The position numbers and the translations under genes are program-made. From positions 28,233 through 92,232 of the forward strand of contig CAYPNM010000006.1 in assembly GCA_964412105.1 (NCBI GenBank): DNA of 64,000 nt, given 5' to 3'. Numbering within the stretch: the first letter of the stretch is position 1; the number at the start of each line of letters is the position of its first letter. The stretch comes from an uncultured Ignavibacteriaceae bacterium (GTDB lineage: Bacteria; Bacteroidota; Ignavibacteria; Ignavibacteriales; Ignavibacteriaceae). Below the pieces are notes generated by a model, which made no database searches, had not been told where the DNA came from, and saw only the letters and a list, made by a program, of their open reading frames with translations. Positions 23,398 to 39,299 of the stretch are shown here, in pieces.

Positions 23398-24795
23398 TTA
23401 AATACCTTTTGTATCGCCTTTAACCATATGCCAAATTGTTAAAAGAATTATTTGCAAGTCAAGCCAAAGTGACCAGTTTTCAATATACCACAAATCATAT
23501 TCTATTCTTTTTATTGTTCTCTTTTTATTTTCCTCTATATCGTCTACATCACCCCTTAATCCGTGAACTTGTGCCCACCCTGTAATACCTGGTTTAACCC
23601 ATGATCTTATTTTGATATTATCAACCATTTGCTTATAAAAGTTATGAAAAGTAATATAATGCGGGCGAGGCCCTACCACCGACATATCTCCTTTTAAAAC
23701 ATTAATGAACTGGGGGAGTTCATCAATATTTGATTTTCTCAAAAATCTACCAAGCTTTGTAACGCGAGGATCATTTTTCAGTGTTGGATTGAATCCTTCC
23801 TTTGTCTTAGCCTCTATCATAGTGCGGAATTTATAGCACTTGAAGAATTCATCGTTTCTTCCAACCCTCTCTTGAACAAATAATAACTTACCCTTTGAAC
23901 TAAATAGATTTATAAGATAAAGGATTGAAAAAGCCCAAGGTAAAATCAGAACTATAATTAAGATTGATAAAATAATATCTACAGTTCTTTTAACAAATCT
24001 CCAATGTGCTTCTGCCAGAGGTTCATCTCTTACTGTAATTATCGGGAAATCACCGATCATGTTTATCTGGTATTTTTTTGAAAGAAACTTAAAGTAATCG
24101 GGTATGATATGTACTCTTTGTGCATTTCGGTTGCAAATTTTAATAATTTTATCGAGCTGGCTAGATTCATAAATCGGGAGGGCTATAACTATTACATTTG
24201 TTTTACTTTGATTAATCACTTTTTCTAAATCAGCAATACTTCCCAGTATGTCTTTGTTTTCTTTATTGGGAGTATCATCCAAAAATCCAACAAACCGGTA
24301 TCCGAAATCCTCGCGACTGTCAATAAGTTCCCGAAAACTTTGCCCCAGCTCGCCGCCACCGATGATCAAAACATTCTTTAAATTTTTTTCTTTTCCCCTT
24401 ATGCTTATTACAATATGCTTTATTATCTGAATCCTTGCACTTACAAGCACCAAAAGGAAAAACGAATAATAAAGAATAAAATTCCTAGTGAACAAATCTT
24501 CTTTTGCTACGAAGATGAAAAGAACGGCAGTGATGCTCTGAACAAATATATTTTTCACTAATCCTGAAAAAAGGTATGAAAATGATCTGGTAGCGGCATC
24601 TTCATAAAATCCGGTAACATTTGAAAAAAAATACCAAATGAAATTAAGGGCAACCATCAAAACAAGCATATAGGGACGGGAAAGAAATATGTGCAAGGAT
24701 TGCGCTAAAACTGCGGCCAGTAAAAAAGAAAAATTTATTACAATAAGATCACTAAATAGTCTTAAATAATATATAGATTTTTGGTTGCCAAACAT
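23398..24795 (-). CDS. polyprenyl-phosphate sugar-phosphate transferase (WbaP/WcaJ-like initiating enzyme)
   Basis: N-terminal TM block, central Rossmann-like domain, and C-terminal bacterial sugar transferase motifs DELPQFINVLKGDMSVVGPRP and PGITGWAQVHG. Confidence 0.9.
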   Translation of the reverse strand: MFGNQKSIYYLRLFSDLIVINFSFLLAAVLAQSLHIFLSRPYMLVLMVALNFIWYFFSNVTGFYEDAATRSFSYLFSGLVKNIFVQSITAVLFIFVAKEDLFTRNFILYYSFFLLVLVSARIQIIKHIVISIRGKEKNLKNVLIIGGGELGQSFRELIDSREDFGYRFVGFLDDTPNKENKDILGSIADLEKVINQSKTNVIVIALPIYESSQLDKIIKICNRNAQRVHIIPDYFKFLSKKYQINMIGDFPIITVRDEPLAEAHWRFVKRTVDIILSILIIVLILPWAFSILYLINLFSSKGKLLFVQERVGRNDEFFKCYKFRTMIEAKTKEGFNPTLKNDPRVTKLGRFLRKSNIDELPQFINVLKGDMSVVGPRPHYITFHNFYKQMVDNIKIRSWVKPGITGWAQVHGLRGDVDDIEENKKRTIKRIEYDLWYIENWSLWLDLQIILLTIWHMVKGDTKGI

Positions 24796-24822
24796 TCCAG
24801 AATTAATTATTAGTCACTAAAA

Positions 24823-25938
24823 TTACTTGTATTTTTCCTTAAGTTTTTCTTCAATAAAGTCTTTTATTTTAGTCTCAAACACCTTTCTTTCAAATTGCTT
24901 TGCATATTCTGCAATGGAGGCATGGTTAAAAGAATCTTTTTTATTTTCAAATCTTTCCACTGCATTTTTAATTGAAAGAGCATTTTGTTCGTTGAAATGA
25001 ATTCCATTAACACTATCAATGACAGTTTCTGCAGTTCCGCCTTTATTAAAGGCTATAACGGGCGTACCGGAAGCCATTGCTTCTATGACTGTTATGCCGA
25101 AATCCTCCTCTGCAGCGAAAACAAAAGCTTTAGCCTTCTTAAATAAAACTTTTAACTTTTCTCCGGTTTGATATCCTACAAACTGAACATTTTTTGCAGC
25201 TTTTGCTTTTATTTTTTCTTCATCAGGCCCATCACCGACAATTATTAATTTCTTTTCAGGCATGAGAGAAAATGCTTCTACAATTATGTCTACTCTCTTA
25301 TAAGGCACAAAGCGTGCAGCTGTTAAGTAATAATCTTCCTTTTCATCACAAAATTCAAATTTACTAATATCAACCGGTGGATTTATAACAGTGGCTTCCC
25401 GGTTGTAGATTTTTTTAATTCTTCCTGCAATGTAGTTTGAATTAGCGATATAATAATCAGGCCTATTAGCTGTTGATATATCCCACATCCTGATATAATG
25501 CAGCATTGATCTTGCGATCATTCCTTTCAATCCGCCTGTTAAATTTGACTCCTTAAGATATTGATGAGTCAAATCCCATGCATATCTCATTGGTGTATGT
25601 GAATAGCAAATATGCAATTGATTAGAGTTAGTAAGAGCACCTTTGGCCACAGCGTGAGAACTGGAAATTACTAAATCATATTCTGATAAATCAAATTGCT
25701 CAACAGCAAGCGGAAAAAGTGCCAGATATTTTCTCGCCTTACTTTTAGCAAAAGGCAATTTTTGTATAAATGATGTGGTGGGCATTTTGCCTTTGGTAAT
25801 AAGTTTCAGGTCGTCTTTATTTAAAAAATTAAACAGCACAAATAAATCGGCATCGGGATAAAGGTTAGTGAATGATTCAACACACCTTTCAGAACCTGCG
25901 TAAGTAGTCAACCATTCGTGTACTATTGCTGTTTTCAA
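24823..25938 (-). CDS. glycosyltransferase family 4
   Basis: GT-B fold C-terminal motif EDFGITVIEAMASGTPVIAFNKGG. Overlaps the upstream GT gene by 4 nt. Confidence 0.85.
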   Translation of the reverse strand: MKTAIVHEWLTTYAGSERCVESFTNLYPDADLFVLFNFLNKDDLKLITKGKMPTTSFIQKLPFAKSKARKYLALFPLAVEQFDLSEYDLVISSSHAVAKGALTNSNQLHICYSHTPMRYAWDLTHQYLKESNLTGGLKGMIARSMLHYIRMWDISTANRPDYYIANSNYIAGRIKKIYNREATVINPPVDISKFEFCDEKEDYYLTAARFVPYKRVDIIVEAFSLMPEKKLIIVGDGPDEEKIKAKAAKNVQFVGYQTGEKLKVLFKKAKAFVFAAEEDFGITVIEAMASGTPVIAFNKGGTAETVIDSVNGIHFNEQNALSIKNAVERFENKKDSFNHASIAEYAKQFERKVFETKIKDFIEEKLKEKYK

Positions 25939-27050
25939 TTTTCCCTTCGTATTGATAAATAAAGTTGTTTTGTTTTTTCAGCCATAATGCTAACTGTAAA
26001 CTCTTTTTCTATTTTTGATTTTGCATTTTCTGAAAATTGTTTCCATTTTTCCTTGTTTTCGGAAAGTTTTAATAGATAAAAAGCTGCTTCTTCAGGCTTG
26101 TTAATATCAAATAGGTAACCATTTTCAGAATGTTTGACCAAGTCATAATTTCCATCAACTTTAGTTGCAATTACGGGCAGTCCAACTGACATTGCTTCCA
26201 TTATGCCGAGAGGAAGCCCTTCCCATCTTGATGTAGAAATATAACAAAATGAGTCGATTAAATAATCGATAGGGTTTGTCTTAAATCCCAAAAACTTGAA
26301 AATACTTGATAATCCATTTTCTTCGGCAAGCAATCGGACCTTGTTTTGTTCGGGGCCGCTACCAATAAGCTGGATTTCAAATTTATGTAATGCTCCATTG
26401 GTTTTTATTTTATTAAAAATGGGAATTAGAAGTTCAGAATTTTTTGCATAATCAAATCTGCTTATTGTAACAATTTTCAATTTCGTTTTAGATAAATAAT
26501 CGAAATTCACAATTTTGCTGGTTAATTCAACTCCATTGTGAATAATTAGTATTTTATCACTTTTAGCTAGTTTTAACGAAATCACAGTAGCTCTTTCGGA
26601 TTCAGACACACATATAAATTTGTTCGTAAATTTCGACAAATATCTTTCGATGGTAAGATAAAGAAATTTGCTTAAGGGATTGTACTCCCCTAAATGAATT
26701 CCGTGAAAAGTATGGATGCTAATAGTTCCTTTTGAACGGGATAGCAGTCTTCCATAAATACCGGCTCCCTTACCGTGTGAATGTATAATATTTATATTGT
26801 TCTTTTTAATAATGTGTTTAAGTTTTGAGAGCTTAAAAATATTGAATTTCCTGTGAGGGATTGTAAAAACTCTTTTTTCCCCAACGATATCTACATAAAT
26901 GTCAAAGTAAGGCTCTTCCTTTGGACAGGCAACAAAGAAGTCAAATGCCGTTGATAATGTTTTTAATAATAAATATATGTGTTTTGGCCCACCTCCATGA
27001 TCGGCTCTTACAGTCAACAATAATATTTTTATTTTCTTTTCCTTAGACAT
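25935..27050 (-). CDS. glycosyltransferase family 4
   Basis: SRWEGLPLGIMEAMSVGLPVIATKVDG (the ExxxxxxE region of GT4). Confidence 0.85.
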   Translation of the reverse strand: MSKEKKIKILLLTVRADHGGGPKHIYLLLKTLSTAFDFFVACPKEEPYFDIYVDIVGEKRVFTIPHRKFNIFKLSKLKHIIKKNNINIIHSHGKGAGIYGRLLSRSKGTISIHTFHGIHLGEYNPLSKFLYLTIERYLSKFTNKFICVSESERATVISLKLAKSDKILIIHNGVELTSKIVNFDYLSKTKLKIVTISRFDYAKNSELLIPIFNKIKTNGALHKFEIQLIGSGPEQNKVRLLAEENGLSSIFKFLGFKTNPIDYLIDSFCYISTSRWEGLPLGIMEAMSVGLPVIATKVDGNYDLVKHSENGYLFDINKPEEAAFYLLKLSENKEKWKQFSENAKSKIEKEFTVSIMAEKTKQLYLSIRREN

Positions 27051-27158
27051 TTATCATTTGAAGGATACTTATATAATTTATTTCGCGGCTACATATAAAC
27101 TGCCTTAATTAATATGAGAATACAAAAACATTCCGGGATTAAAATCCAGTTTCCATTT

Positions 27159-28322
27159 TCAGAATTCTAATGCCTTGATTAATTCTTTGTAGCGGATTTT
27201 CCAATCGTTCAGTCTTGCCGATTCTACCAGCTCGTTTTTGTTTATTTGATTTTTGGTAGCCTTCTTTAGAAGTTGGACAAATTCATCATATGTATTATAT
27301 AGAAATGCCTTTGTATTCATTTTCTCAAGCTCACTCCAACGTGCAGAAACAACGGGCAACCCGCACGCAAAATATTGATGGAGTTTTATTGGATTAACAT
27401 ATTCAATCAACTTTCCAGAATTTTTTATATCAAAAGGGATAATGCCCGTATCAGAATTATGAAGATATCCAGGCAACTCATCGCTTATTTTAATTCCCAG
27501 TACGTGAATATTTGGATAGTTGCTGAATTCCCTTTTTGCAATAATATCATTGCCGATTAAGACGAACGAGAATTGAGGGAGGGCAATTGCAGCATATTTA
27601 ATCAATCTAAAATCGAACCTTGTTTCCATTTCCCCTATGTAGATAATTCGTGGATGCGGAATTGATTTTAAATCTTCCGGTTCTTCTCTGCGTCCATTTG
27701 CAAATTTTTCAAAGTTCACTCCATTTGGAAAATAAAGTGACTTCTTATCCTTAATATTTTCAATATAGTGTTCAAGATTTTTTGCTGTATAAAGTATAAG
27801 GTCAACATTCTTAGCAAGATTTTCTTCCATTACTTTCGTGTAGTCGGTATATTTTTTATAACCGGCATAATTATCAGCTATCCGAAAAACGGATTTCTTA
27901 TAATTAATTATTTTTAACCAACTACCTTGGGTGGCATTATCAAAATAAAGCAAGTCAACCTTATCAAATCCGTTATTCTTCAATTTATAATATATACGGG
28001 GGACAGTAAATTTGTACCAGTTTTCAAAAACAAACCTAGTATTAAGTATGGGAAAATTTTGAGGAGGAAGCAAAGTTAAAGGGACATAACTCCACACATT
28101 GTTTATTTTGTCATTTACGCCTCCTGATAACCACAACTTAAATCTATCTTTTATCTGTTTATCATTTATCTTGAGAAGATGTAGAGGGGAAACAGGATCG
28201 GAAACAAAACCAACCTCCCACCCATTTTCAGCAAACAACGACGCAAGTTCATGAGAACCAACTCTGTACGGAGTATTCCAATAATTTGCAGTTATGAAAA
28301 GAGTCTTACGTTTTCCTTTCAT
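27159..28322 (-). CDS. glycosyltransferase (GT-B, TuaH-like)
   Basis: NPIKLHQYFACGLPVVSARW motif. Overlaps the upstream methyltransferase gene by 4 nt. Confidence 0.7.
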   Translation of the reverse strand: MKGKRKTLFITANYWNTPYRVGSHELASLFAENGWEVGFVSDPVSPLHLLKINDKQIKDRFKLWLSGGVNDKINNVWSYVPLTLLPPQNFPILNTRFVFENWYKFTVPRIYYKLKNNGFDKVDLLYFDNATQGSWLKIINYKKSVFRIADNYAGYKKYTDYTKVMEENLAKNVDLILYTAKNLEHYIENIKDKKSLYFPNGVNFEKFANGRREEPEDLKSIPHPRIIYIGEMETRFDFRLIKYAAIALPQFSFVLIGNDIIAKREFSNYPNIHVLGIKISDELPGYLHNSDTGIIPFDIKNSGKLIEYVNPIKLHQYFACGLPVVSARWSELEKMNTKAFLYNTYDEFVQLLKKATKNQINKNELVESARLNDWKIRYKELIKALEF

Positions 28323-28933
28323 CGTTTCTCTAATAAGAAAAAAGTATGATAGGTATTCTCTTTGGGAGTAAAAGACGCAGCTATCTTAAATTTATTTTTT
28401 ATTATACCCTTAATTTTTTTTGCTTGATAACCCTTCTTTCCAATTTCCCAGTAATGCTGCCCATCAAACTCGTGGGATCTATAAAGCTTTGGAATAAGAA
28501 TTTTTATGGTAGTTGTGCCAAATATTGGTAAACATATTTCGAACAATATTTTATGATTTGCATACGGCAAACTAATAAAAACATACCTCGAGCTAACCCT
28601 TTTCAATTCATCAAGCAGTTTAGCAAATTTTTCAAATGGTAAATGCTCTAAAACCTGGAAGCAGCCGACCAGATTAAATTCATTATCTTTAAATGGAAGT
28701 TGCTCAACAGTAGCAATTACATTAGGAGTTAAATCATTACTTAGGTCTACATTAAAGTATTTAATATTTTCAGGTATTAATTTCCTTAAGAATCCGATTC
28801 CTCCACCAATTTCAAGAAAACTTTTAGGATTTAATTTCTCAACATATTTTAACTGGTAATAGTAAGATGCAAATCTTTCTTTAGTGATATATGTTTCAAA
28901 ATCGTAATGAGCTTTTTCTACCTGAATTTTCAT
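28319..28933 (-). CDS. class I SAM-dependent methyltransferase
   Basis: SAM motif I FLEIGGGIGF, and FQVLEHLPFEKF. Confidence 0.8.
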   Translation of the reverse strand: MKIQVEKAHYDFETYITKERFASYYYQLKYVEKLNPKSFLEIGGGIGFLRKLIPENIKYFNVDLSNDLTPNVIATVEQLPFKDNEFNLVGCFQVLEHLPFEKFAKLLDELKRVSSRYVFISLPYANHKILFEICLPIFGTTTIKILIPKLYRSHEFDGQHYWEIGKKGYQAKKIKGIIKNKFKIAASFTPKENTYHTFFLLEKR

Positions 28934-30210
28934 CTCATCTTTCTCAAACCGTTATAAATTAAATAAAAAGTTATAATTTTATTCGTAATTGACGTAATCA
29001 AGGTTGAATAAATAACTCCCATAAATCCATAATATCCTATAAATAGAATTCCAAGCCCAATATTCATAAATCCGAAAGGAATTGTCAACAAACTATATTT
29101 GGCTTTTCCAGTTGCAATAATAAATGGTTGAACAATAAATCCAGAAATAAGTAATAAAGGGAGATGAACAAGCAGCAAATTAAACATTTTAATAAAATTG
29201 GGAGTGTAATATTTAACGAGGAAAAGTTTTATTAAAGGAGGAAAAAGCTGCCAAAGAAATAGTGTTATAATTATTGATAACGGGAAAGCGATTAACAGAC
29301 TTTTTTTAAATTGGCTAAGAACATTATCATATTTGGAAAGAGTGATTTTTTCTGTAACTCCGGGGGCAATTATTTGGCCATAAATAATAAAGGGAAAAGA
29401 AAGCATAACAAATATTTTATCAATTATTTCATAATAACCTACCTCTGTGAAATAATTGAATTGACCAAGGATGTAAGTGATTCCTCTTGAATAAAGAAAA
29501 TAACCAATAGCTGAGATACCAATAATAAATGAATATTTCCCAACCTCTGATATTATTTTTTTATCAAATTTAAAGCTAAATAGTTTGAAGCTGGAGCTAA
29601 AAAGAATAAAACTAGTAATATAATAGAAGTTTAAGGATAAAAATGCTCCGATTATTCCGAATCTAGATATAAGAATATAAGTCGCTCCGACAGTAATTGT
29701 TCCGGCAATTAATGAAATTATGGAAAGTTTCTTAAATTGTTTTAATCCACTATACACTCCATCGAATAAAGATGTAAGAGGCAAAAAAATAAAAACAGGT
29801 GTGAGATAGTAAACATAATGATAATTCTCTCCGACAATTACTTTTGCAAACAAAAGAAATATAGAGCTGAAAATAATTATCAGAGTCAAAATTATAAGAG
29901 CTGAATTGAAATAAATCAATTTAACTTTAGAGGGGCTTTCAGTGTTATATTGGGCAACAAATTTTGTAACTGCTCTTGATATTCCAAAATCGGCAAGCAA
30001 AGTAAAGAAATAGGTAATTGCCACTGTATAACTGTAAATTCCGAAATTTTCGGAGGAAAGAAGCTTTGCTGAAACAACTAAAATTAAGAAAGTAATCCCC
30101 TGTCTGCTGGCATTTTGGATTGCCCGCCAAATAAAATTTTTAATCGTGACCGGGTGTTTCTTAAGTAAGTCTAACAATAATTTATGTGAAAATATTTCTA
30201 AATTAAGCAT
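28930..30210 (-). CDS. wzx: oligosaccharide flippase (Wzx / MOP superfamily)
   Basis: 426 aa with about 12 TM helices. Position and pattern are typical of polysaccharide biosynthesis flippases. Confidence 0.75.
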   Translation of the reverse strand: MLNLEIFSHKLLLDLLKKHPVTIKNFIWRAIQNASRQGITFLILVVSAKLLSSENFGIYSYTVAITYFFTLLADFGISRAVTKFVAQYNTESPSKVKLIYFNSALIILTLIIIFSSIFLLFAKVIVGENYHYVYYLTPVFIFLPLTSLFDGVYSGLKQFKKLSIISLIAGTITVGATYILISRFGIIGAFLSLNFYYITSFILFSSSFKLFSFKFDKKIISEVGKYSFIIGISAIGYFLYSRGITYILGQFNYFTEVGYYEIIDKIFVMLSFPFIIYGQIIAPGVTEKITLSKYDNVLSQFKKSLLIAFPLSIIITLFLWQLFPPLIKLFLVKYYTPNFIKMFNLLLVHLPLLLISGFIVQPFIIATGKAKYSLLTIPFGFMNIGLGILFIGYYGFMGVIYSTLITSITNKIITFYLIYNGLRKMR

Positions 30211-30367
30211 TAAAGTAGTTAAATTATTCTTAAGTTACTGAAAAAATGTTGTGCTGTCTTTGTCGGTATAACGTATCTGGGGGCACTATAGTGCGAGCAA
30301 TTATCCCAAAATATATGAATATTAATATTGTAATTTAAACTTTCTGTGGTGATTCCATGAGCCGTGA

Positions 30368-31126
30368 ATGAAAATATCATCAATTATAATAGCGAAAAAC
30401 GAAGAAGAAAATATTGGGCGATGTATCGAAAGTCAGCTTGACTGCATCGATGAAATAATTGTACTTGTGGATATAACCACAACTGACAGAACCTTTGAGA
30501 TTGCCAAATCCTATCCGAGTGTGAAAGTTCAGGCAGTTAACTGGATGGGTTATTCCAGAACCAAAGAATATGGGGTATCGATAGCTTCTAATGATTGGAT
30601 TTTTTGGATTGACGCAGATGAAGCATTGACTAAGGAACTGTCTCAGGAAATGTTACTCTTCAAAAAGGCTGTCCCTGAGTTTTCGGCGTATTCAATTCCA
30701 AGAAAAGCTTACTTCCTTGGAAAGTGGATTAAACACAGCGGCTGGTATCCCGGGAGGGTTACAAGGATTTTTGACAAAAACAAAGTTAGTTTCAGTGATA
30801 ATGATGTACATGAGCATCTCATAGTTAACGGATTAACGGGGAAACTGAAAAGTGATATTGAACATTATACGGATCCAACGATCCGTCACTATTTCGAAAA
30901 ATTTAATCAATATACTACACTTGCCGCCGAAGAAATGATAAAACAAAAGAAAGCTTTTAAGCTTTCTGATCTTATTATCAGGCCAATCTTTATCTTTAAG
31001 AAAATGTATCTTTTCAAATTGGGTTTTTTAGACGGCATTCAGGGATTTATACTAGCAATATTTTCTGCAGCGTATGTTTTTACAAAATATTGTAAGTTTT
31101 GGGAATTGAAAAAAAACGGTAGATAA
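30368..31126 (+). CDS. glycosyltransferase family 2
   Basis: SIIIAKNEEENIGRCIES and WIFWIDADE (DxD region). Confidence 0.85.
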   Translation: MKISSIIIAKNEEENIGRCIESQLDCIDEIIVLVDITTTDRTFEIAKSYPSVKVQAVNWMGYSRTKEYGVSIASNDWIFWIDADEALTKELSQEMLLFKKAVPEFSAYSIPRKAYFLGKWIKHSGWYPGRVTRIFDKNKVSFSDNDVHEHLIVNGLTGKLKSDIEHYTDPTIRHYFEKFNQYTTLAAEEMIKQKKAFKLSDLIIRPIFIFKKMYLFKLGFLDGIQGFILAIFSAAYVFTKYCKFWELKKNGR

Positions 31127-32601: not shown

Positions 32602-32628
32602 AAAAAGGCGCTCAATGAGCGCCTTTTT
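32602..32628. terminator. bidirectional Rho-independent terminator
   Basis: Perfect 12-bp stem AAAAAGGCGCTC / GAGCGCCTTTTT with a 3-nt loop. The A/T runs are built into both arms. Confidence 0.85.
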
Positions 32629-32631
32629 AAT

Positions 32632-33792
32632 TTAGCTTTCAACCTCTTCCAGGATTGGCAGTTCGATTTTTGAAATATCAATCTCCTTAACTTTTGATTT
32701 ACCATTCTTGCCAGTGGCTTTACCGGTCTTCCTGGTGTCTGGGTTGTTTTTATCTTTGTAATTTTTGTAAATGTATACTTTGTTTTTGTAATTACGAAGG
32801 ATAATTTTGTCCTCATCGTGATGAACTACATATTCAGGCAGGATAGGAATTTTCCCTCCTCCGCCAGGAGCATCTATAACGAAGTGAGGAATAGCCAGAC
32901 CGCTTGTGTGACCTCTGAGGTTTTCAATTATATTAATTCCAGTTTCTACAGAGGTACGGAAATGATTTGCTCCCTTAGTTTCATCAGCCATATACATATA
33001 ATAAGGACGCACCCTGATTTTTAATAGCTTCTGCATCAATTCTTTAACAACAGCAGGATCATCATTTACGCCTTTCATTAATACCATTTGATTACCAACC
33101 GGGATGCCGGAATCTGCCAGCATTTCACAAGCCTTTGTGCTTTCTGGAGTGATTTCCCAAGGATGATTAAAGTGAGTATTAAGGTAAACAGGATGATACT
33201 TTTTTATCATATTACAAAGTTTCGGGGTGATTCTCTGGGGGAGAACACAGGGCATTTTCGATCCAAGACGGATAATTTCAATATGTGGAATTGATCTCAG
33301 CCTTTGCAGGATTTTTTCCAGCATTGCATCCGTGAGCATTAATGGATCTCCGCCCGACATAATTACATCTCTTATTTCTGTATGCTCTTCGAGATACTTG
33401 AAGGCGCTTTCAAGACCTTTCATTGAGATCTTTTCATAGTCTCCAACTTTTCTTTTTCTGGTACAGAACCGGCAATAAAGCCCGCACTGACTGGTGACAA
33501 GAAAAAGAGCTCTGTCGGGATAACGATGTGTTATATTGGGAACCGGACTCATTGAGTCTTCCATCAATGGATCTTCTTCTCCATCGAAGTCATCAAGTTC
33601 CACTTTATCGGGTACGCATTGACGCCAGATAGGGTCCCCTGGGTATCTGATCAAACTGAAATAATATGGGTTAATTCTTGCCTGGAAAAATTCATCCAGA
33701 TCTTCAGCGACCTTCCGATCTATATTAAATTTTTCGACAAGTTGATCAACAGTATGAATACTGTCGCGTACCATTTGCTGCCATAGTTCCAT
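32632..33792 (-). CDS. kamA: lysine 2,3-aminomutase (KamA-family radical SAM/PLP enzyme) with a basic C-terminal tail
   Basis: CGLYCRFCTRKRK (CxxxCxxC), SGGDPLML, NTHFNHPWEIT, RVRPYYMYMADE, VIDAPGGGGKIP. From memory it is near-collinear with Clostridium subterminale KamA up to the last 45 aa or so. Confidence 0.9.
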   Translation of the reverse strand: MELWQQMVRDSIHTVDQLVEKFNIDRKVAEDLDEFFQARINPYYFSLIRYPGDPIWRQCVPDKVELDDFDGEEDPLMEDSMSPVPNITHRYPDRALFLVTSQCGLYCRFCTRKRKVGDYEKISMKGLESAFKYLEEHTEIRDVIMSGGDPLMLTDAMLEKILQRLRSIPHIEIIRLGSKMPCVLPQRITPKLCNMIKKYHPVYLNTHFNHPWEITPESTKACEMLADSGIPVGNQMVLMKGVNDDPAVVKELMQKLLKIRVRPYYMYMADETKGANHFRTSVETGINIIENLRGHTSGLAIPHFVIDAPGGGGKIPILPEYVVHHDEDKIILRNYKNKVYIYKNYKDKNNPDTRKTGKATGKNGKSKVKEIDISKIELPILEEVES

Positions 33793-33815
33793 GACTGACC
33801 CTCAGTTTGTTATAC

Positions 33816-34289
33816 TTATTGATAAAAATATTTTCCAAATATCATTAAACTATCCCCGACTCTATAAAAATCTTTTATTTCTGCAATTATCGAATAATTA
33901 TTTCTTAAATAGAAATTTCTTGTTTTTAAGTAACTATCTTTTGAAGATGTTTCCGCCAGAAGCCATCTTCCGTTATTTCCTGTTACGAATTTTTCTGCAT
34001 GATCAAGTAATTGCTTACCTATACCTTTAATACCGGATTCTGGATCAGAAACAATCCAGTAAAGATCATAAACAGCATCTGTCAAAGGACGTTTCCCGGT
34101 GCAATGATAACCGAGAATGATTCCGTTATTTTCATAAACAAAAATATTATAGTCGGTCTGCTTTGGAACCGTAATTGCTATATTCACGAGTTCCATTGCG
34201 ACATCGACCTCTTCTTTATTAAAGATCGGAATCTTTTTTAAAATATTTTCAATTTCAATTGCATCAGCCTGCTTTAATTTTCGTATCAT
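33816..34289 (-). CDS. GNAT-family N-acetyltransferase (157 aa)
   Basis: Acetyl-CoA motif A region SGIKGIGKQLLDHAEKF. Overlaps the upstream ligase gene by 26 nt. Confidence 0.8.
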   Translation of the reverse strand: MIRKLKQADAIEIENILKKIPIFNKEEVDVAMELVNIAITVPKQTDYNIFVYENNGIILGYHCTGKRPLTDAVYDLYWIVSDPESGIKGIGKQLLDHAEKFVTGNNGRWLLAETSSKDSYLKTRNFYLRNNYSIIAEIKDFYRVGDSLMIFGKYFYQ

Positions 34290-35325
34290 CTCTCTTTCTG
34301 GTTAAGGCAAAATTTGCAATTGTATACAATAATTCTCCGTATGTAATGCCGGCTGCGGAAGCCGCACGGGCAAAACCTGAATCAGTCGAAATGTCGGGAT
34401 TCGGGTTCACTTCGATTACGTATGGCGATCCATCATTGCTGAGTCGAATATCAACCCTTGCATAGTCTCTGCAGTTCATTGCCCTATAAGCCTCCATCGC
34501 GACAGCCTCAACATTTTTTCTTGTATTTTTTTCAATATCAGCAGGACAGCTGGGTTGCGTATGCTGATAATAAACACTCTCTTCAATCCACTTACTATCA
34601 TAAGTGATAATTTTGGGTAGATTGTCAGGAAGTCCATTAAAAAGGATCTCGGATATGGGAAGGATTTGATCCCCTAAAATAGCGATGTTAAGCTCGCGAC
34701 CCTCTATATATTCTTCAGCTATGACATCCTGTTTATAAGTTTCAAATAAAAATTTTAATTGCTTTGTTAGTTCAGAATGATCATGAACAACCGAAAGCTC
34801 TGAAATACCGATGCTTGCATCTTCAGTCAGCAATTTAAGGATAACAGGAAATTTTAGATTAAAACTTTTTTTCAGGATTTCATCATTTCTTTTTATTATT
34901 TGCGATCTGGGTGTTTGAATCCCGAATGACCGCAAAATATTTTTTGCCCGTTCCTTATTAAGACAATTTCCGAGAGTTATCGGTGTATTACCAGTAAATT
35001 GATAGCCCAGCAGTTCAAAAACTCCTGCAATGCAATATTCATAGCTAGCAATCCCTTCGATTGATTCAACAAAATTAAAGATTGCATCAGGCGATATCTT
35101 ATTTAATTCCGATATTGTTCTTTCTACATTGCTGTTTGCTGCATAAGTCTCAACTTTGGTGAAATACTTTTCCAGACTTTCAATTATTTTATGCAAATCT
35201 CTTTCGAAAGCATTTTCAGAAAGGTCGTTTATTTTGCTATCCTTCGGCGCCGGTTTACCATTGTAAATCGTGAAAATACTAGCCGGAGAATTGTAACAAA
35301 TCAATATTTTAGCATCTGTTCTCAT
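34264..35325 (-). CDS. ATP-grasp ligase, D-Ala-D-Ala-ligase-like family (paralogue 2)
   Basis: KFPVILKLLTEDASIGIS, VIAEEYIEGRELNIAILGD, RDYARVDIRLSNDGSPYVIEVNPNPDIS. The N-terminal domain is atypical. Confidence 0.85.
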   Translation of the reverse strand: MRTDAKILICYNSPASIFTIYNGKPAPKDSKINDLSENAFERDLHKIIESLEKYFTKVETYAANSNVERTISELNKISPDAIFNFVESIEGIASYEYCIAGVFELLGYQFTGNTPITLGNCLNKERAKNILRSFGIQTPRSQIIKRNDEILKKSFNLKFPVILKLLTEDASIGISELSVVHDHSELTKQLKFLFETYKQDVIAEEYIEGRELNIAILGDQILPISEILFNGLPDNLPKIITYDSKWIEESVYYQHTQPSCPADIEKNTRKNVEAVAMEAYRAMNCRDYARVDIRLSNDGSPYVIEVNPNPDISTDSGFARAASAAGITYGELLYTIANFALTRKRDDTKIKAG

Positions 35326-36377
35326 AAAAGTTTATGCCTCTTAGCTGCAACGTATAACACTTTATTTACCATATCGACATAACTGAGTCCAACTGTTCTT
35401 GCCGCTTTTGGAAAACACGAGTTATCCTCAGGATTTGGCAGTATTCCAGGTATTGGGTTTACTTCAATAATATTGGGTATATTGTTTGAATCGAGGCGCA
35501 CATCGATCCTGCTCCAATCGCGGCATCGTAATGTTTTATAAGCATTTAGTACAGTGTTTTTAATCTGTATTTCCAGGTCATTGCTTATTTCTGCCGGACA
35601 GGTAAAAACATCCAGCGGATTTTCTTTTGTGTCCAGTATCCATTTAGCTTCATATGAATAAATTGGAATAAAATCCTCCGGAAAGTCACTAAAATTTATT
35701 TCAACTATTGGCAACACTTCTGCTTCATCGTCATTACCAAGAACTGCTACAGTAAATTCTCTTCCCGGCAGGAATTCTTCGATCAAGGCCGGTTGTGCGT
35801 ATTCCGATATCACCCTGTTAGCTTCTCTTTCCAGTTCTGCATCGCTTTTTACGTATGAAGTAGAAAAAATTCCTTTGCCTGATCCCTCCGAATATGGTTT
35901 TACAATCAGTGGGAACCTTAAATTGTGATTTTTAATCGTCTCAATTTTATCGGCCAGGATAAATTTGGAGTTTGGGATTCCATGATAGGTAAGAATTTCT
36001 TTTGTTCTAGCTTTATCAAGACATGTTGCAAGCGTTAAAGGATCAGAACCAGTGTAAGGGATGTCGAGCATATCAAGCATAGCAGGTATCTGCGCCTCTC
36101 TGCTTATGTTTTTCAGTCCTTCAGCAAAGTTAAAAACTATATCCGGTTGAATTTCTTTAAATTTTTCAAAGGCAAGTTCATTTGCTTCGACTAATTTAAC
36201 ATCATTGTACAGAGCCAAAGCATTTTTTATTGAGTTGATCGTTTCCCAGGTATCCCATTCAGCATATGTATCAACCGCTTTTTCCGGTTGATGTTGCGCA
36301 TTTTTTTGAACAGGGGATAATTCTTGGAGGAAAGTTTCACTTTCTGGTTTAACATTGAATGTAAGAGCGACTTTCAA
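35322..36377 (-). CDS. ATP-grasp ligase, D-Ala-D-Ala-ligase-like family (paralogue 1)
   Basis: TTG start. RFPLIVKPYSEGSGKGI, LIEEFLPGREFTVAVLGN, RDWSRIDVRLDSNNIPNIIEVNPIPGI. ATGA overlap with paralogue 2. Confidence 0.85.
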   Translation of the reverse strand: MKVALTFNVKPESETFLQELSPVQKNAQHQPEKAVDTYAEWDTWETINSIKNALALYNDVKLVEANELAFEKFKEIQPDIVFNFAEGLKNISREAQIPAMLDMLDIPYTGSDPLTLATCLDKARTKEILTYHGIPNSKFILADKIETIKNHNLRFPLIVKPYSEGSGKGIFSTSYVKSDAELEREANRVISEYAQPALIEEFLPGREFTVAVLGNDDEAEVLPIVEINFSDFPEDFIPIYSYEAKWILDTKENPLDVFTCPAEISNDLEIQIKNTVLNAYKTLRCRDWSRIDVRLDSNNIPNIIEVNPIPGILPNPEDNSCFPKAARTVGLSYVDMVNKVLYVAAKRHKLL

Positions 36378-36384
36378 TCGAACA

Positions 36385-36543
36385 TTAAAGAGAGAAGATA
36401 AAATAATTTCTCCTTGCGATGTTTATAACAAATATAACTAATAATACTTTTAAGTCAACAACATTAAAAAACTTTTCAGGAATGTCTTTTGACATCGAAC
36501 CGACAACTTCTTTCGAGAATATTTCTGATAACATGAAAATCAT
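36385..36543 (-). CDS. possible 52-aa ORF ending 7 nt before the first ATP-grasp gene
   Basis: Hand translation gives MIFMLSEIFSKEVVGSMSKDIPEKFFNVVDLKVLLVIFVINIARRNYFIFSL. No good Shine-Dalgarno site. Below the ORF-track length cutoff. Confidence 0.2.
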   Translation of the reverse strand: MIFMLSEIFSKEVVGSMSKDIPEKFFNVVDLKVLLVIFVINIARRNYFIFSL

Positions 36544-36678
36544 TAGTTATAAATTTTATTCACCTCAAATTTATAACTAAAAATATTATTTACAAACAAT
36601 AATTGCAAAATTTTTTTTGGGGTGAAGGGGGTTACTAATCCACTCAGGAAGAGAGGTTGAACCTAAATTTAAAACCTG

Positions 36679-38889
36679 TCAGGCTATCTTGGCGTACTCA
36701 AGATTCTTTGAATAGTGTTTTAAAAAATTTTCCTTTAGTATAGAATTTATTTCAGAGTTAAGATGCGGATCTTCATTTATAATTTTAAAAGCAGACAACC
36801 GAGCTTCTTGAATTATCTCCGTATCATTTATGATGTTAACAAATTTTAAATCCGGTAAACCACTTTGCCTAGTTCCGAAAATGTCTCCCGGTCCTCTAAG
36901 CTTCAGATCAACCTCAGCAACTTTAAAACCATCATTATACTTAACCATTGTTTGAAGTCTAGCGCTGGCCTTATATTTTTCAATCTGTGCGGATGATAGG
37001 TATTCCAGCTCCAGGTTTTTGTTTCCATGGTCTGCTACATAATTATCTTTGGTAACGAGAATGCAATATGCCTGTTTGTGACTTCTTCCTACTCTCCCAC
37101 GAAGCTGATGCAGCTGTGATAGGCCAAATCTATGAGCATCGTTAATTAGGATGATGTTTGCATCCGGGATGTCAATGCCTACTTCAATAACAGTTGTACT
37201 TATAAGCACATTATATTTCTTTGCTAAAAACAGCAACATTACCTCTTCTTTTTCCTGCCATTTCATCCGTCCATGGATAAGCCCCAGCTTAAGACCTTTT
37301 AGGTCAGAATCTTGTAATTCTTTGTAATAAGTCTCAGCAGCTTTTAGCTCCATTTTCTCTGAGTCCTCGACAAGAGGATAGACGATATAGGATTGATAAC
37401 CTTCCTTACTTTTATCTGAAATAAACTTATATATTGCGTTTAACTTTGTCTCGCCTCTTAGAAGAGTTTTTACCGGCTTTCTATTCTTTGGCATTTCGTC
37501 TATAATAGATAGATCCAGGTCGGCATAAATAGTCATAGATAAGGTTCGTGGAATTGGTGTGGCACTCATTACCAGCACATCAGGGACTTTCCCTTTGTTT
37601 TGAAGTTTAGCTCTTTGAGCAACTCCGAATCGATGTTGTTCATCGACAATAACTAAACCAAGGTTGTTGAATTTTACCTTTCTTTCAAATAGTGCATGGG
37701 TTCCTATAATGATATCGGCCTGCTGTAATTCTATCTTCTGAAGACTCTTTTCTTTTTCAGATTTTTTCTGGCCACCAACTAAAAGACTGACTTTTACAAT
37801 TTTTTCTTTATGGATTTCGGATAATTTTTTCATCATCTTTGAAATATTTTTGGCATGCTGATCAGCCAGTATTTCTGTAGGGGCCATTAAAACGGCCTGG
37901 CAGCCGTTGTCAACTGCTATCAGCATTGCGATAAGAGCGACAATAGTCTTCCCTGATCCGACGTCTCCCTGCAAAAGCCTGTTCATCGGTTCGATTGATT
38001 CCATATCATTCTTAATTTCACCCAAGACTTTGAGTTGAGCCATGGTAAGGTCAAAAGGGAGTGTTTTCAGGAAATCCTGCACCAAATGAGTTTTTATTTT
38101 CATAGAACTTCCGGCCAACCTTGTTTTATAATTGTGCTTTCTTAATGCTACGAGCATTTCAATATAGAACAATTCTTCGAACTTGAATCTTCTTTGTGCT
38201 TCAACGAACTTCTCACGGTTTTCAGGATAATGAAAGTTTTTAACTGCTTCAATGAGTGAGAGCAAATTGTGTTCTTTAATAATGGTGGAAGGTAGCGTCT
38301 CTTCAAGCAGGTGAGCATAAAGTTCAACTGCATTATTTATAATTTTTCTAAGGCTAAAGTCGCCTATATTGGTGTTTCTCAATTCCTTTGGAATCCGATA
38401 AAAGGGGATAATCTTGCCAGTGTTTAATAAGCCTTTTGATTCATCCTCCGAAATTCTATCGAAGTCAGGATGAGTGAATTGCAAATTCCCGTATTTGGAT
38501 TTGACAGGCCTGCCTGAAACGGCGAAAGTGTCTCCTTCGTGAAAAACATTTAGGAAATATTTTATTCCCTGGTACCAAACGCACTCAAAAAATCCTGTTG
38601 AATCCCGGAATTGCACCTTGAATATTTCTCGTCTCCCATATCTTCTTTTTTCAATGTCTTCAACCTTAGCAATAATTGTTAATTCTCCATCATAACCGTT
38701 TAATACATATCCGTAAGCTTTTGCTGCCGTAAGAGTAGTTGATCTATCAAGATGACGTGAGGGGAAATAAAAAAGAATATCCCTAATGGTTTCAATCCCT
38801 ATTTTCTTAAAAGATTCTGCACGACGCGGGCCAACTGATTTAATATACTGTACAGATCGAGCAATAATATTTTCATTTGATTTATTCAT
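36679..38889 (-). CDS. recG: ATP-dependent DNA helicase RecG
   Basis: GDVGSGKT (Walker A), VDEQHRFG, MSATPIPRT, QLRGRVGR. I prefer the ATG at 38889 (MNKSNEN..) because the 20-codon upstream extension is hydrophobic and unlike RecG. Confidence 0.93.
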   Translation of the reverse strand: MNKSNENIIARSVQYIKSVGPRRAESFKKIGIETIRDILFYFPSRHLDRSTTLTAAKAYGYVLNGYDGELTIIAKVEDIEKRRYGRREIFKVQFRDSTGFFECVWYQGIKYFLNVFHEGDTFAVSGRPVKSKYGNLQFTHPDFDRISEDESKGLLNTGKIIPFYRIPKELRNTNIGDFSLRKIINNAVELYAHLLEETLPSTIIKEHNLLSLIEAVKNFHYPENREKFVEAQRRFKFEELFYIEMLVALRKHNYKTRLAGSSMKIKTHLVQDFLKTLPFDLTMAQLKVLGEIKNDMESIEPMNRLLQGDVGSGKTIVALIAMLIAVDNGCQAVLMAPTEILADQHAKNISKMMKKLSEIHKEKIVKVSLLVGGQKKSEKEKSLQKIELQQADIIIGTHALFERKVKFNNLGLVIVDEQHRFGVAQRAKLQNKGKVPDVLVMSATPIPRTLSMTIYADLDLSIIDEMPKNRKPVKTLLRGETKLNAIYKFISDKSKEGYQSYIVYPLVEDSEKMELKAAETYYKELQDSDLKGLKLGLIHGRMKWQEKEEVMLLFLAKKYNVLISTTVIEVGIDIPDANIILINDAHRFGLSQLHQLRGRVGRSHKQAYCILVTKDNYVADHGNKNLELEYLSSAQIEKYKASARLQTMVKYNDGFKVAEVDLKLRGPGDIFGTRQSGLPDLKFVNIINDTEIIQEARLSAFKIINEDPHLNSEINSILKENFLKHYSKNLEYAKIA

Positions 38890-39299
38890 CAAAGTGAAAA
38901 ATAGTGCAAGCAGAAAGCAATTACAATAAACCGAAAACTTGGGTAGCATTCTAATTCTAAATTAGGAAATGAAGCAAATTATCATTTTGATTTTGTCTGT
39001 TTAAATGACCGATTCGGATTGAGAATTTATGAAATCCGCAAAACGCAGAATTATCAGGCTGAATGTATCTCCCAAAACTGATTTTCGCTTTCGAGTAATT
39101 CCCTGATCCATAGCGATGTTATCTGTTCTGACCACAATACAGCCCGGCAATTTTACCTTTTATTCGGTGAATCAGAAATATAAAAAGGTCTTTTTTTGGT
39201 ATGTCAATTTTGTCAAAATAGAACGAATTTTGGTCCTGATTTTGGGGATTTTTATGGGGGGTATATACCAGTTGTATAGGAGGTGAGCAGGAAGTAGAA

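Follow-up and report, generated by a model that had tools for sequence, protein, structure and literature searches.

A conserved operon of two Ddl-like ligases, a GNAT acyltransferase and lysine 2,3-aminomutase that may build an amide-linked beta-lysine conjugate

A 64,000-nucleotide stretch of DNA from an uncultured Ignavibacteriaceae bacterium (GenBank assembly GCA_964412105.1, contig CAYPNM010000006.1, positions 28,233 to 92,232; hereafter the window) carries an operon of four packed genes on its minus strand. The genes encode two paralogous ATP-grasp ligases related to the D-alanine-D-alanine ligase Ddl (called AG1 and AG2), a short GNAT-family acyltransferase and a lysine 2,3-aminomutase of the KamA family (Table 1). 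On balance, this operon probably makes a small, amide-linked conjugate of beta-lysine, and does so as a constitutive function of the core genome, not as a mobile or secondary-metabolite cluster. Genes identical to those of the unit are present on sediment metagenome contigs, and the close homologues are all labelled Ignavibacteria.

Conservation of the four genes was surveyed in the class Ignavibacteria by scanning one genome per GTDB species with a nine-sequence alignment query, which yielded 80 loci. The order AG1-AG2-GNAT-KamA is complete in 72 of these, and the remaining eight are cut by contig ends, with no counter-example to co-occurrence of the families. The flanks are likewise syntenic in all 72 complete loci, with recG upstream and genes for a thioredoxin-like protein, NAD kinase and a GT2 glycosyltransferase downstream. 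A scan of metagenomes seeded with an archaeal ligase returned a further 80 loci with G+C fractions of 0.33-0.73; among the 28 that have enough flanking sequence, AG2 is found in 24, KamA in 22 and GNAT in 15.

Outside Ignavibacteria the same genes are arranged in other ways. A Nitrososphaerales archaeon has AG2 on the opposite strand, followed by KamA, AG1 and GNAT, and an uncultured bacterium has AG1, AG2 and KamA. Clusters of Desulfovibrio mangrovi, Woeseia and another bacterium hold KamA, two ligases and GNAT, together with a fusion of GNAT to a histone-deacetylase-family domain. This 580-residue fusion suggests reversible acetylation or a protection and deprotection step that has no counterpart in Ignavibacteria. 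The D. mangrovi cluster, near 3.558-3.564 Mb of CP104208, also has a sigma-54 activator gene upstream. In an uncultured bacterium, a 103-residue Zn_ribbon_8 (FmdB-type) protein with a tail rich in Ser, Thr and Lys ends exactly at the AG1 start; it may be a carrier or a regulator, and no such protein was seen at the other loci.

Several of the genes are also fused to one another. One contig encodes a KamA-AG1 fusion (P0129), the next gene being an AG2-GNAT fusion, and AG2-GNAT fusions occur in four separate clusters (L089, P0209, P0254 and P0261). AG1-AG2 and AG2-AG1 fusions account for 16 + 3 = 19 of 150 representative clusters. Because the gene order is invariant, the genes cluster in archaea and other phyla, and fusions join all four functions, these sequence comparisons support the view that the four genes constitute one functional unit.

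The source of beta-lysine in this scheme is the aminomutase, which is 52% identical to the lysine 2,3-aminomutase of Clostridium subterminale (PDB 2a5h; E = 1e-122). The CxxxCxxC cluster recognized in the first-pass annotation reads CGLYCRFC and aligns with C125, C129 and C132 of 2a5h, in agreement with a Pfam Radical_SAM match (E = 2e-13), and the segment IDAPGGGGK aligns with VDAPGGGGK of 2a5h, which contains the lysine that binds pyridoxal phosphate (PLP; K337). A phmmer alignment to 2a5h also bears out the proposed lysine-binding Asp pair, as Asp293 and Asp330 are both kept (YMAD against YQCD, and ID against VD). Arg134 is kept as well (CTRKR against CTRRR). In the 2a5h enzyme, Arg134 contacts the alpha-carboxylate of the substrate and the two Asp residues contact its epsilon-ammonium group.

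Family models from NCBIfam place the enzyme in the same way. It passes the KamA family model TIGR00238 with a score of 307 against a cut-off of 199, and its best equivalog is AblA (TIGR03820), for which it scores 466, under the cut-off of 525. Five other cluster-type KamA proteins from other phyla behave alike, with AblA-model scores of 461-497, all below 525. The EpmB model gives 232 against a cut-off of 369, and the glutamate 2,3-aminomutase model gives 436 against a cut-off of 650. In glutamate 2,3-aminomutase the Asp pair is replaced by Lys and Asn. With this low score and both Asp residues kept, the product predicted earlier, beta-lysine rather than beta-glutamate, is upheld. Of the four genes, KamA is the best conserved, with 73-93% identity across the class Ignavibacteria. 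Some members of the class also have a second, distant KamA-family gene (about 470 codons, the products being 29-30% identical) a few kilobases upstream of recG.

AG1 and AG2, which are about 30% identical to each other, have the Ddl C-terminal signature described in the first-pass annotation (Pfam Dala_Dala_lig_C; E = 5e-35 for AG1 and 3e-32 for AG2), and both also give weak Pfam matches to TTL and RimK. An AlphaFold model of AG1 has a predicted local distance difference test (pLDDT) value of 85 and a predicted template-modelling (pTM) score of 0.86, and the 50 best PDB matches to it, every one a Ddl-type ligase, align over the whole length with template-modelling (TM) scores of 0.7-0.84. For alignment of individual residues we used Escherichia coli DdlB, whose reference sequence was verified against PDB 1iov. 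In at least six lineages, both ligases keep K97, K144, E180, E187, K215, R255, D257, E270 and N272 (DdlB numbering). Judged by these kept residues, both AG1 and AG2 appear to be catalytically intact.

The separation from housekeeping Ddl that had been proposed on the basis of N-terminal domain, tandem arrangement and gene context is also borne out. Scores for the Ddl model PRK01372 are 186 (AG1) and 163 (AG2) against a cut-off of 243, both proteins fall far under the cut-off of each remaining Ddl or Van model in NCBIfam, and the genes are not linked to mur or fts. At the D-Ala site of DdlB, made up of the E15-S150-Y216 triad and H63, His63 is an invariant Glu and Tyr216 is Trp; S150 is kept in AG1 and is Ala or Gly in AG2. 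The N-terminal GGxSxEhxVS motif of Ddl is replaced by AE(F/W)D, which follows a disordered insert and whose alignment to E15 is uncertain. A neighbour-joining tree puts AG1 and AG2 on a long branch apart from DdlB, and the ligases occur as tandem or fused paralogues, with orthologues that have the same neighbours in Nitrososphaerales archaea. By these sequence features, AG1 and AG2 are classed as Ddl-like enzymes that are not bona fide Ddl. Their family is large, with 1091 clusters at 50% identity that match at E <= 1e-30, and its members carry the database label 'D-alanine--D-alanine ligase' even in murein-free archaea.

The third enzyme, a 157-residue protein, matches Pfam Acetyltransf_7 and Acetyltransf_1. 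It has a coenzyme A (CoA) motif of the (Q/R)xxGxG/A type, present as GIKGIGK in the window and as QRKGVGK in the archaeal orthologue, and orthologues from Nitrososphaerales and other lineages have their invariant residues and an xxxGxG CoA motif in common. As had been noted earlier, it is much shorter than AblB/YodP, and no AblB match is obtained in NCBIfam. The structural-genomics entry PDB 2r7h, titled 'putative D-alanine N-acetyltransferase', falls within this GNAT family (E = 2e-42); the name may derive from an adjoining 'D-Ala-D-Ala ligase' annotation rather than from an assay. The closest relatives of 2r7h are found in Oleidesulfovibrio and Desulfovibrio. Across the clusters an acyltransferase partner recurs in two non-orthologous forms, either the short 2r7h-type GNAT or an Acetyltransf_3 GNAT (RimJ/RimL-like, of the N-terminal acetylase type) that is often fused to AG2. 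The recurrence of non-orthologous acyltransferases fits a role in capping the free alpha-amine of a unit added by AG2.

A further indication of what the ligases recognize comes from loci in which the aminomutase is replaced. In 11 of the 80 metagenome loci, genes for agmatinase and a pyruvoyl-dependent arginine decarboxylase, both of which pass their NCBIfam equivalog cut-offs, lie directly upstream of AG1-AG2(-GNAT), and a methyltransferase gene follows. Arginine decarboxylase and agmatinase together yield putrescine. The two types of supplier are mutually exclusive, with KamA at 42 loci, the replacement pair at 11 and both at none, and the 11 loci group in a single clade that falls within the KamA-type loci. 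The amines of beta-lysine (at C3 and C6) are four carbons apart, as in the putrescine skeleton, and beta-lysine is thus a carboxymethyl-substituted putrescine. Read most simply, one supplier module probably took the place of another while the ligases went on acting on a 1,4-diaminobutane moiety.

This exchange of KamA for a putrescine supply, together with the skeleton shared by the two compounds, gives a concrete prediction, namely that the ligases recognize a 1,4-diamine. Putrescine has no carboxylate; therefore, in the swap clade the diamine could serve only as an amine acceptor, and the activated carboxylates would have to come from other molecules, presumably amino acids. Some of these loci (L117, L119, L120, L125 and L129) have a longer, putrescine-type operon in the order agmatinase, arginine decarboxylase, AG1, AG2, methyltransferase, two GT1 glycosyltransferases and a second methyltransferase; the product of this operon may carry additional methyl or glycosyl groups.

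Taken in order, the proposed pathway would begin with the conversion of L-lysine to beta-lysine (3,6-diaminohexanoate) by KamA, through the radical-SAM/PLP mechanism expected by homology. AG1 and AG2 would then each spend ATP to form an acyl-phosphate and from it one amide bond, joining one or two amino-acid units to the 1,4-diaminobutane portion of beta-lysine, whether singly on each amine or as a short chain. The GNAT would use acetyl-CoA to acetylate a leftover free amine, most likely the one at the alpha position of the residue that AG2 adds. The predicted product is a cytoplasmic N-acetylated aminoacyl- or dipeptidyl-beta-lysine that would resemble a polyamine or a compatible solute. A single promoter would drive expression, the genes would be translationally coupled, and the first gene would initiate inefficiently at its AUU codon. 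A broader formulation, which we put forward as a tentative possibility, is that a pathway widespread in bacteria and archaea uses two Ddl-derived ligases to decorate a 1,4-diaminobutane scaffold with amino-acid units and an acetyl cap, the scaffold being mostly beta-lysine and, in the swap clade, putrescine.

Several observations weigh against a beta-lysine conjugate as the product. Some loci hold the ligase pair without KamA or GNAT, and in Myxococcota and Bacteriovoracia a fused double ligase of about 700 residues, both halves of which are AG1-like, is directly followed by a Peptidase_S58 gene, with no KamA nearby. Peptidase_S58 is the DmpA/BapA family, which includes beta-aminopeptidases. 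These loci show that the ligase pair is not exclusively tied to beta-lysine. Furthermore, the swap clade is monophyletic, and so represents a single evolutionary event. At positions conserved in at least 80% of sequences, none distinguishes KamA-type from swap-type AG1 and one (the position of Ddl Y210) distinguishes the two types of AG2; this near-absence of distinguishing positions gives no pointer to the enzyme that contacts the diamine. Which amino acids are added in the scheme, with what regiochemistry and in what sequence of reactions, is inferred throughout.

An alternative use of the same enzymes would be the synthesis of an oligomer or polymer, such as epsilon-linked oligo-beta-lysine or an alternating co-polymer comparable to cyanophycin or to the poly-glutamate of RimK, with the GNAT capping or neutralizing it. 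Self-condensation of beta-lysine is feasible, given its carboxylate and free amines, and two ligases could divide the work between starting and extending the chain, or each make one of the two kinds of bond in a co-polymer. The double ligase and Peptidase_S58 of the Myxococcota/Bacteriovoracia sister clade look like a synthetase/hydrolase pair, and the proteobacterial GNAT-deacetylase fusion would be expected if the charge of a polycation were managed. However, the putrescine of the swap clade cannot extend a chain, no deacetylase or Peptidase_S58 homologue is found in the Ignavibacteria unit, in the 64-kb window or in the 80 Ignavibacteria loci of 17 kb, and no primer or carrier gene is conserved, a 52-residue open reading frame in the upstream spacer included. 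We regard polymer synthesis as unlikely. Modification of a macromolecule seems similarly doubtful. Here, beta-lysine or a beta-lysyl peptide would be attached to a protein, as in EF-P or in tailing of the RimK/TTL type, or to an envelope precursor, as by the D-aspartate ligase of Enterococcus. Conservation throughout the class and strong purifying selection on KamA fit a housekeeping role of this kind, as do the weak TTL and RimK matches of the ligases. The gene set is also present, however, in Nitrososphaerales, which lack murein and are not known to have EF-P, and the supplier can be replaced by putrescine synthesis. Relatives of KamA do supply beta-lysine for EF-P (PMC2821294), yet the present enzyme scores far higher as AblA than as EpmB, and neither epmA nor efp, mur, fts or any other candidate target gene is linked to the unit at any examined locus. 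The envelope modification raised in the first-pass annotation is thus disfavoured by the core-like behaviour of the unit and its presence in murein-free archaea.

The same annotation had offered an antimetabolite peptide made by a secondary-metabolite cluster, with the GNAT conferring self-resistance in the manner of streptothricin acetyltransferases. ATP-grasp amino-acid ligases do make bacilysin, rhizocticin and tabtoxin, beta-lysine is part of streptothricin-type antibiotics, and the GNAT profile has a faint similarity to aminoglycoside and streptothricin acetyltransferases. Against this, the unit keeps the same neighbours in all 72 complete Ignavibacteria loci, as a core-genome element would, and also occurs in Nitrososphaerales; no transporter, regulator or resistance gene is present in it or next to it, and no tailoring gene in it; and the fusion of GNAT to AG2 in four separate clusters points to a biosynthetic step and not to resistance. 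Such a cluster is therefore very improbable. We give least credence to plain synthesis of N-epsilon-acetyl-beta-lysine or to lysine fermentation. AblA is the best-scoring equivalog of the aminomutase, and KamA with an acetyltransferase makes up a known two-gene osmolyte pathway (PMC3543383; PMC2821294). Fusion of KamA to AG1 and of AG2 to GNAT, along with an unvarying order of the four genes, nevertheless ties the ligases into the pathway, the GNAT lacks an AblB-model match, and the cluster-type KamA proteins all fall under the AblA cut-off. As for fermentation, kamDE, kdd, kce and kal are all absent from the genes called or annotated beside the unit, although no dedicated search of the whole window was made for them.

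If the operon does make a beta-lysine conjugate, its product would represent a new class of primary metabolites that resemble polyamines or osmolytes and occur across the whole of Ignavibacteria as well as in some Nitrososphaerales, Desulfobacterota and other lineages. A fifth role, in core metabolism and kept by an entire bacterial class as well as by archaea, would be new. It would also provide a function for a large orphan ligase family and for the solved structure 2r7h. No description of the four-gene combination was found in the full-text literature searched, a scope that excludes most subscription journals, so that a prior description is possible; the comparative paper on EF-P and KamA (PMC2821294) does not mention the combination. 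What appear to be new are the conserved combination, its breadth over two domains of life, the exchange of suppliers and the class of product predicted, whereas the enzyme families and their chemistries were already known.

The compact structure of the unit is as first described. All four open reading frames of the first-pass annotation were recovered at the same coordinates (AG1 as 36377-35322), and every peptide motif quoted there is present in the translations. The AG2 start lies across the AG1 stop in an ATGA overlap, within the sequence CTTTTATGAGAAC, and the coordinates yield the 26-nucleotide overlap of AG2 with GNAT and the 23-nucleotide gap between GNAT and KamA. In contrast, the start of AG1 requires revision. 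The TTG codon at 36377 corresponds to a Leu codon of mixed spelling in 74 Ignavibacteria orthologues (TTG in 33, TTA in 24, CTG in 9, CTA in 3, TTT in 2, and CTT, CTC and ATT in 1 each), and 14 of the 74 species lack any in-frame ATG, GTG or TTG before the equivalent position. Of 75 sequences, 73 have, 8-11 codons before that position, a GGAG or GGAA box followed by an in-frame ATT (63 sequences) or ATC (10), and both elements can be read directly in the window. Over the nine codons between ATT and TTG, differences among close relatives are mostly synonymous (ctc/ttg, ttt/ttc and cga/aga). Because the TTG site is a mixed Leu codon and the box resembling a Shine-Dalgarno sequence is conserved together with ATT, AG1 most likely begins at the non-canonical AUU codon at 36404, which gives a protein of 360 residues.

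An AUU start is also used by E. coli infC. Its conservation in AG1 across the class Ignavibacteria, with AUC in 10 species, suggests initiation that is deliberately weak or sensitive to IF3, a translational oddity of interest in its own right.

Of promoter-like sequences on the minus strand, TTGACT-16-TATATTTG matches best, at 10 of 12 positions. Both boxes are invariant in nine aligned Ignavibacteriaceae spacers, from species with protein identities of only about 70%. A promoter at this site implies a 5′ untranslated region of only about 25 nucleotides, and what had been described as a 300-bp AT-rich leader would consequently be, for the most part, untranscribed spacer. A second conserved Ignavibacteriaceae block, TTAGTTATAAATTTGAGGTG, which has a TAnnTTTG-like motif inside it, is situated about 130 nucleotides upstream of the operon promoter and could be another promoter or else a binding site. 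Rfam searches for a known RNA or riboswitch gave no match at the gathering threshold in the whole window, and only chance-level matches in 36300-36750. The spacer open reading frame of 52 codons between recG and AG1 was considered as a precursor or carrier peptide and rejected: apart from one near-identical ENA contig (L001), on which it is annotated as a gene, it is recognizable in only 1 of the 80 Ignavibacteria loci and is thus probably spurious. Its in-frame substitutions are non-synonymous.

Downstream of KamA, the terminator reads AAAAAGGCGCTC-AAT-GAGCGCCTTTTT and folds with a free energy of -22.8 kcal/mol (z = -5.9), with none of 200 shuffled sequences folding as well. The hairpin itself is therefore as annotated, whereas its 12-bp stem comprises a 7-bp G+C core (GGCGCTC/GAGCGCC), the other five pairs being A-U tails. 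An automated terminator scan missed this hairpin, probably because the T-run was counted as stem, and direct folding confirmed it. Just beyond lies an exopolysaccharide-type cluster with genes for a Bac_transf priming transferase, two GT1 glycosyltransferases, a GumK-like glycosyltransferase, a methyltransferase, a Polysacc_synt flippase and a GT2 glycosyltransferase. On the other side of the unit, a gene for a DNA-repair helicase is found just upstream of the ligases in many lineages (priA in 22 metagenome loci, recG in Ignavibacteria), an adjacency that may be mere inherited synteny.

Table 1. Positions of the operon, its signals and other features mentioned in the text. Numbers refer to the window unless preceded by a locus number (L).
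Feature	Position	Strand or location	Description
ATP-grasp ligase 1 (AG1)	36404-35322	-	Ddl fold; 360 aa from ATT, 351 aa from TTG 36377
ATP-grasp ligase 2 (AG2)	35325-34264	-	AG1 paralogue
GNAT N-acyltransferase, short	34289-33816	-	157 aa; Pfam Acetyltransf_7
Lysine 2,3-aminomutase, KamA family	33792-32632	-	386 aa; Radical_SAM and LAM_C
Bidirectional intrinsic terminator	32602-32628	between convergent KamA and thioredoxin-like genes	by folding
Putative promoter	36458-36429	-	TTGACT (36458-36453), 16-nt spacer, TATATTTG (36436-36429, TAnnTTTG-type -7 box)
AG1 translation start region	36415-36402	-	AAGGAG (36415-36410), 5 nt, ATT (36404-36402)
Conserved upstream block	36561-36580	-	TTAGTTATAAATTTGAGGTG
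52-aa spacer open reading frame	36543-36385	-	probably spurious
recG	36679-38949		DNA-repair helicase
Exopolysaccharide-type cluster	23398-31126		just downstream of the unit
Second KamA-family gene	L011:307-1722; L027:1867-3264; L028:1848-3242	-	Ignavibacteria
GNAT and histone-deacetylase-family fusion	L094:8629-10386; L096:6268-8004; L095:6370-7998		proteobacterial/Desulfovibrio clusters
Putrescine-type operon	L119:265-8607		example of the longer form
Fused double ligase and Peptidase_S58	L085:8001-11757; L087:8001-11256		L085, Anaeromyxobacter dehalogenans CP000251
Zn_ribbon_8 protein	L092:1793-2104		uncultured bacterium
priA	L130:1860-4304		example of a metagenome locus

The contexts in which KamA is already known do not fit the unit, a point on which the model scores and the literature searched agree with the first-pass annotation. 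The closest is the AblA/AblB system of methanogens and some bacteria, in which a KamA of the lysine 2,3-aminomutase type makes beta-lysine and a GNAT acetylates an amine. AblA/AblB has no ATP-grasp ligases, however, and the present GNAT belongs to the shorter 2r7h-type family, with KamA proteins below the AblA cut-off. The EF-P ligase EpmA is a paralogue of lysyl-tRNA synthetase and not an ATP-grasp enzyme. The EpmA/EpmB system is similar in that a KamA-family aminomutase feeds beta-lysine to an ATP-dependent ligase (PMC2821294), but EpmB represents a distinct KamA clade and the unit described here is also archaeal.

As for the ligases, AG1 and AG2 share with Ddl, of the VanA family, the three-domain fold, the residues for ATP, Mg and catalysis and presumably the acyl-phosphate mechanism; they differ in their sub-cut-off scores, in the changes of H63 to Glu and Y216 to Trp, in being tandem or fused, in their distance from mur and fts and in their occurrence in Nitrososphaerales. 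The joining of an acetyltransferase domain to an ATP-grasp ligase has a parallel in the synthesis of N-acetylglutaminylglutamine amide (NAGGN), an N-acetylated dipeptide osmolyte of Sinorhizobium and Pseudomonas made by Ngg (a GNAT plus an ATP-grasp enzyme) with AsnO. That pathway uses another ATP-grasp subfamily and domain order, involves no aminomutase, beta-amino acid or diamine, and performs one ligation where the unit would perform two. Glutathionylspermidine and trypanothione synthetases join a peptide carboxylate to the terminal amines of a polyamine, trypanothione synthetase at both ends. Although these enzymes are of an unrelated subfamily, act on spermidine and glutathione and are accompanied by neither a dedicated diamine-supply gene nor a GNAT, they resemble the proposed pathway in the ATP-grasp-type acylation of a polyamine.

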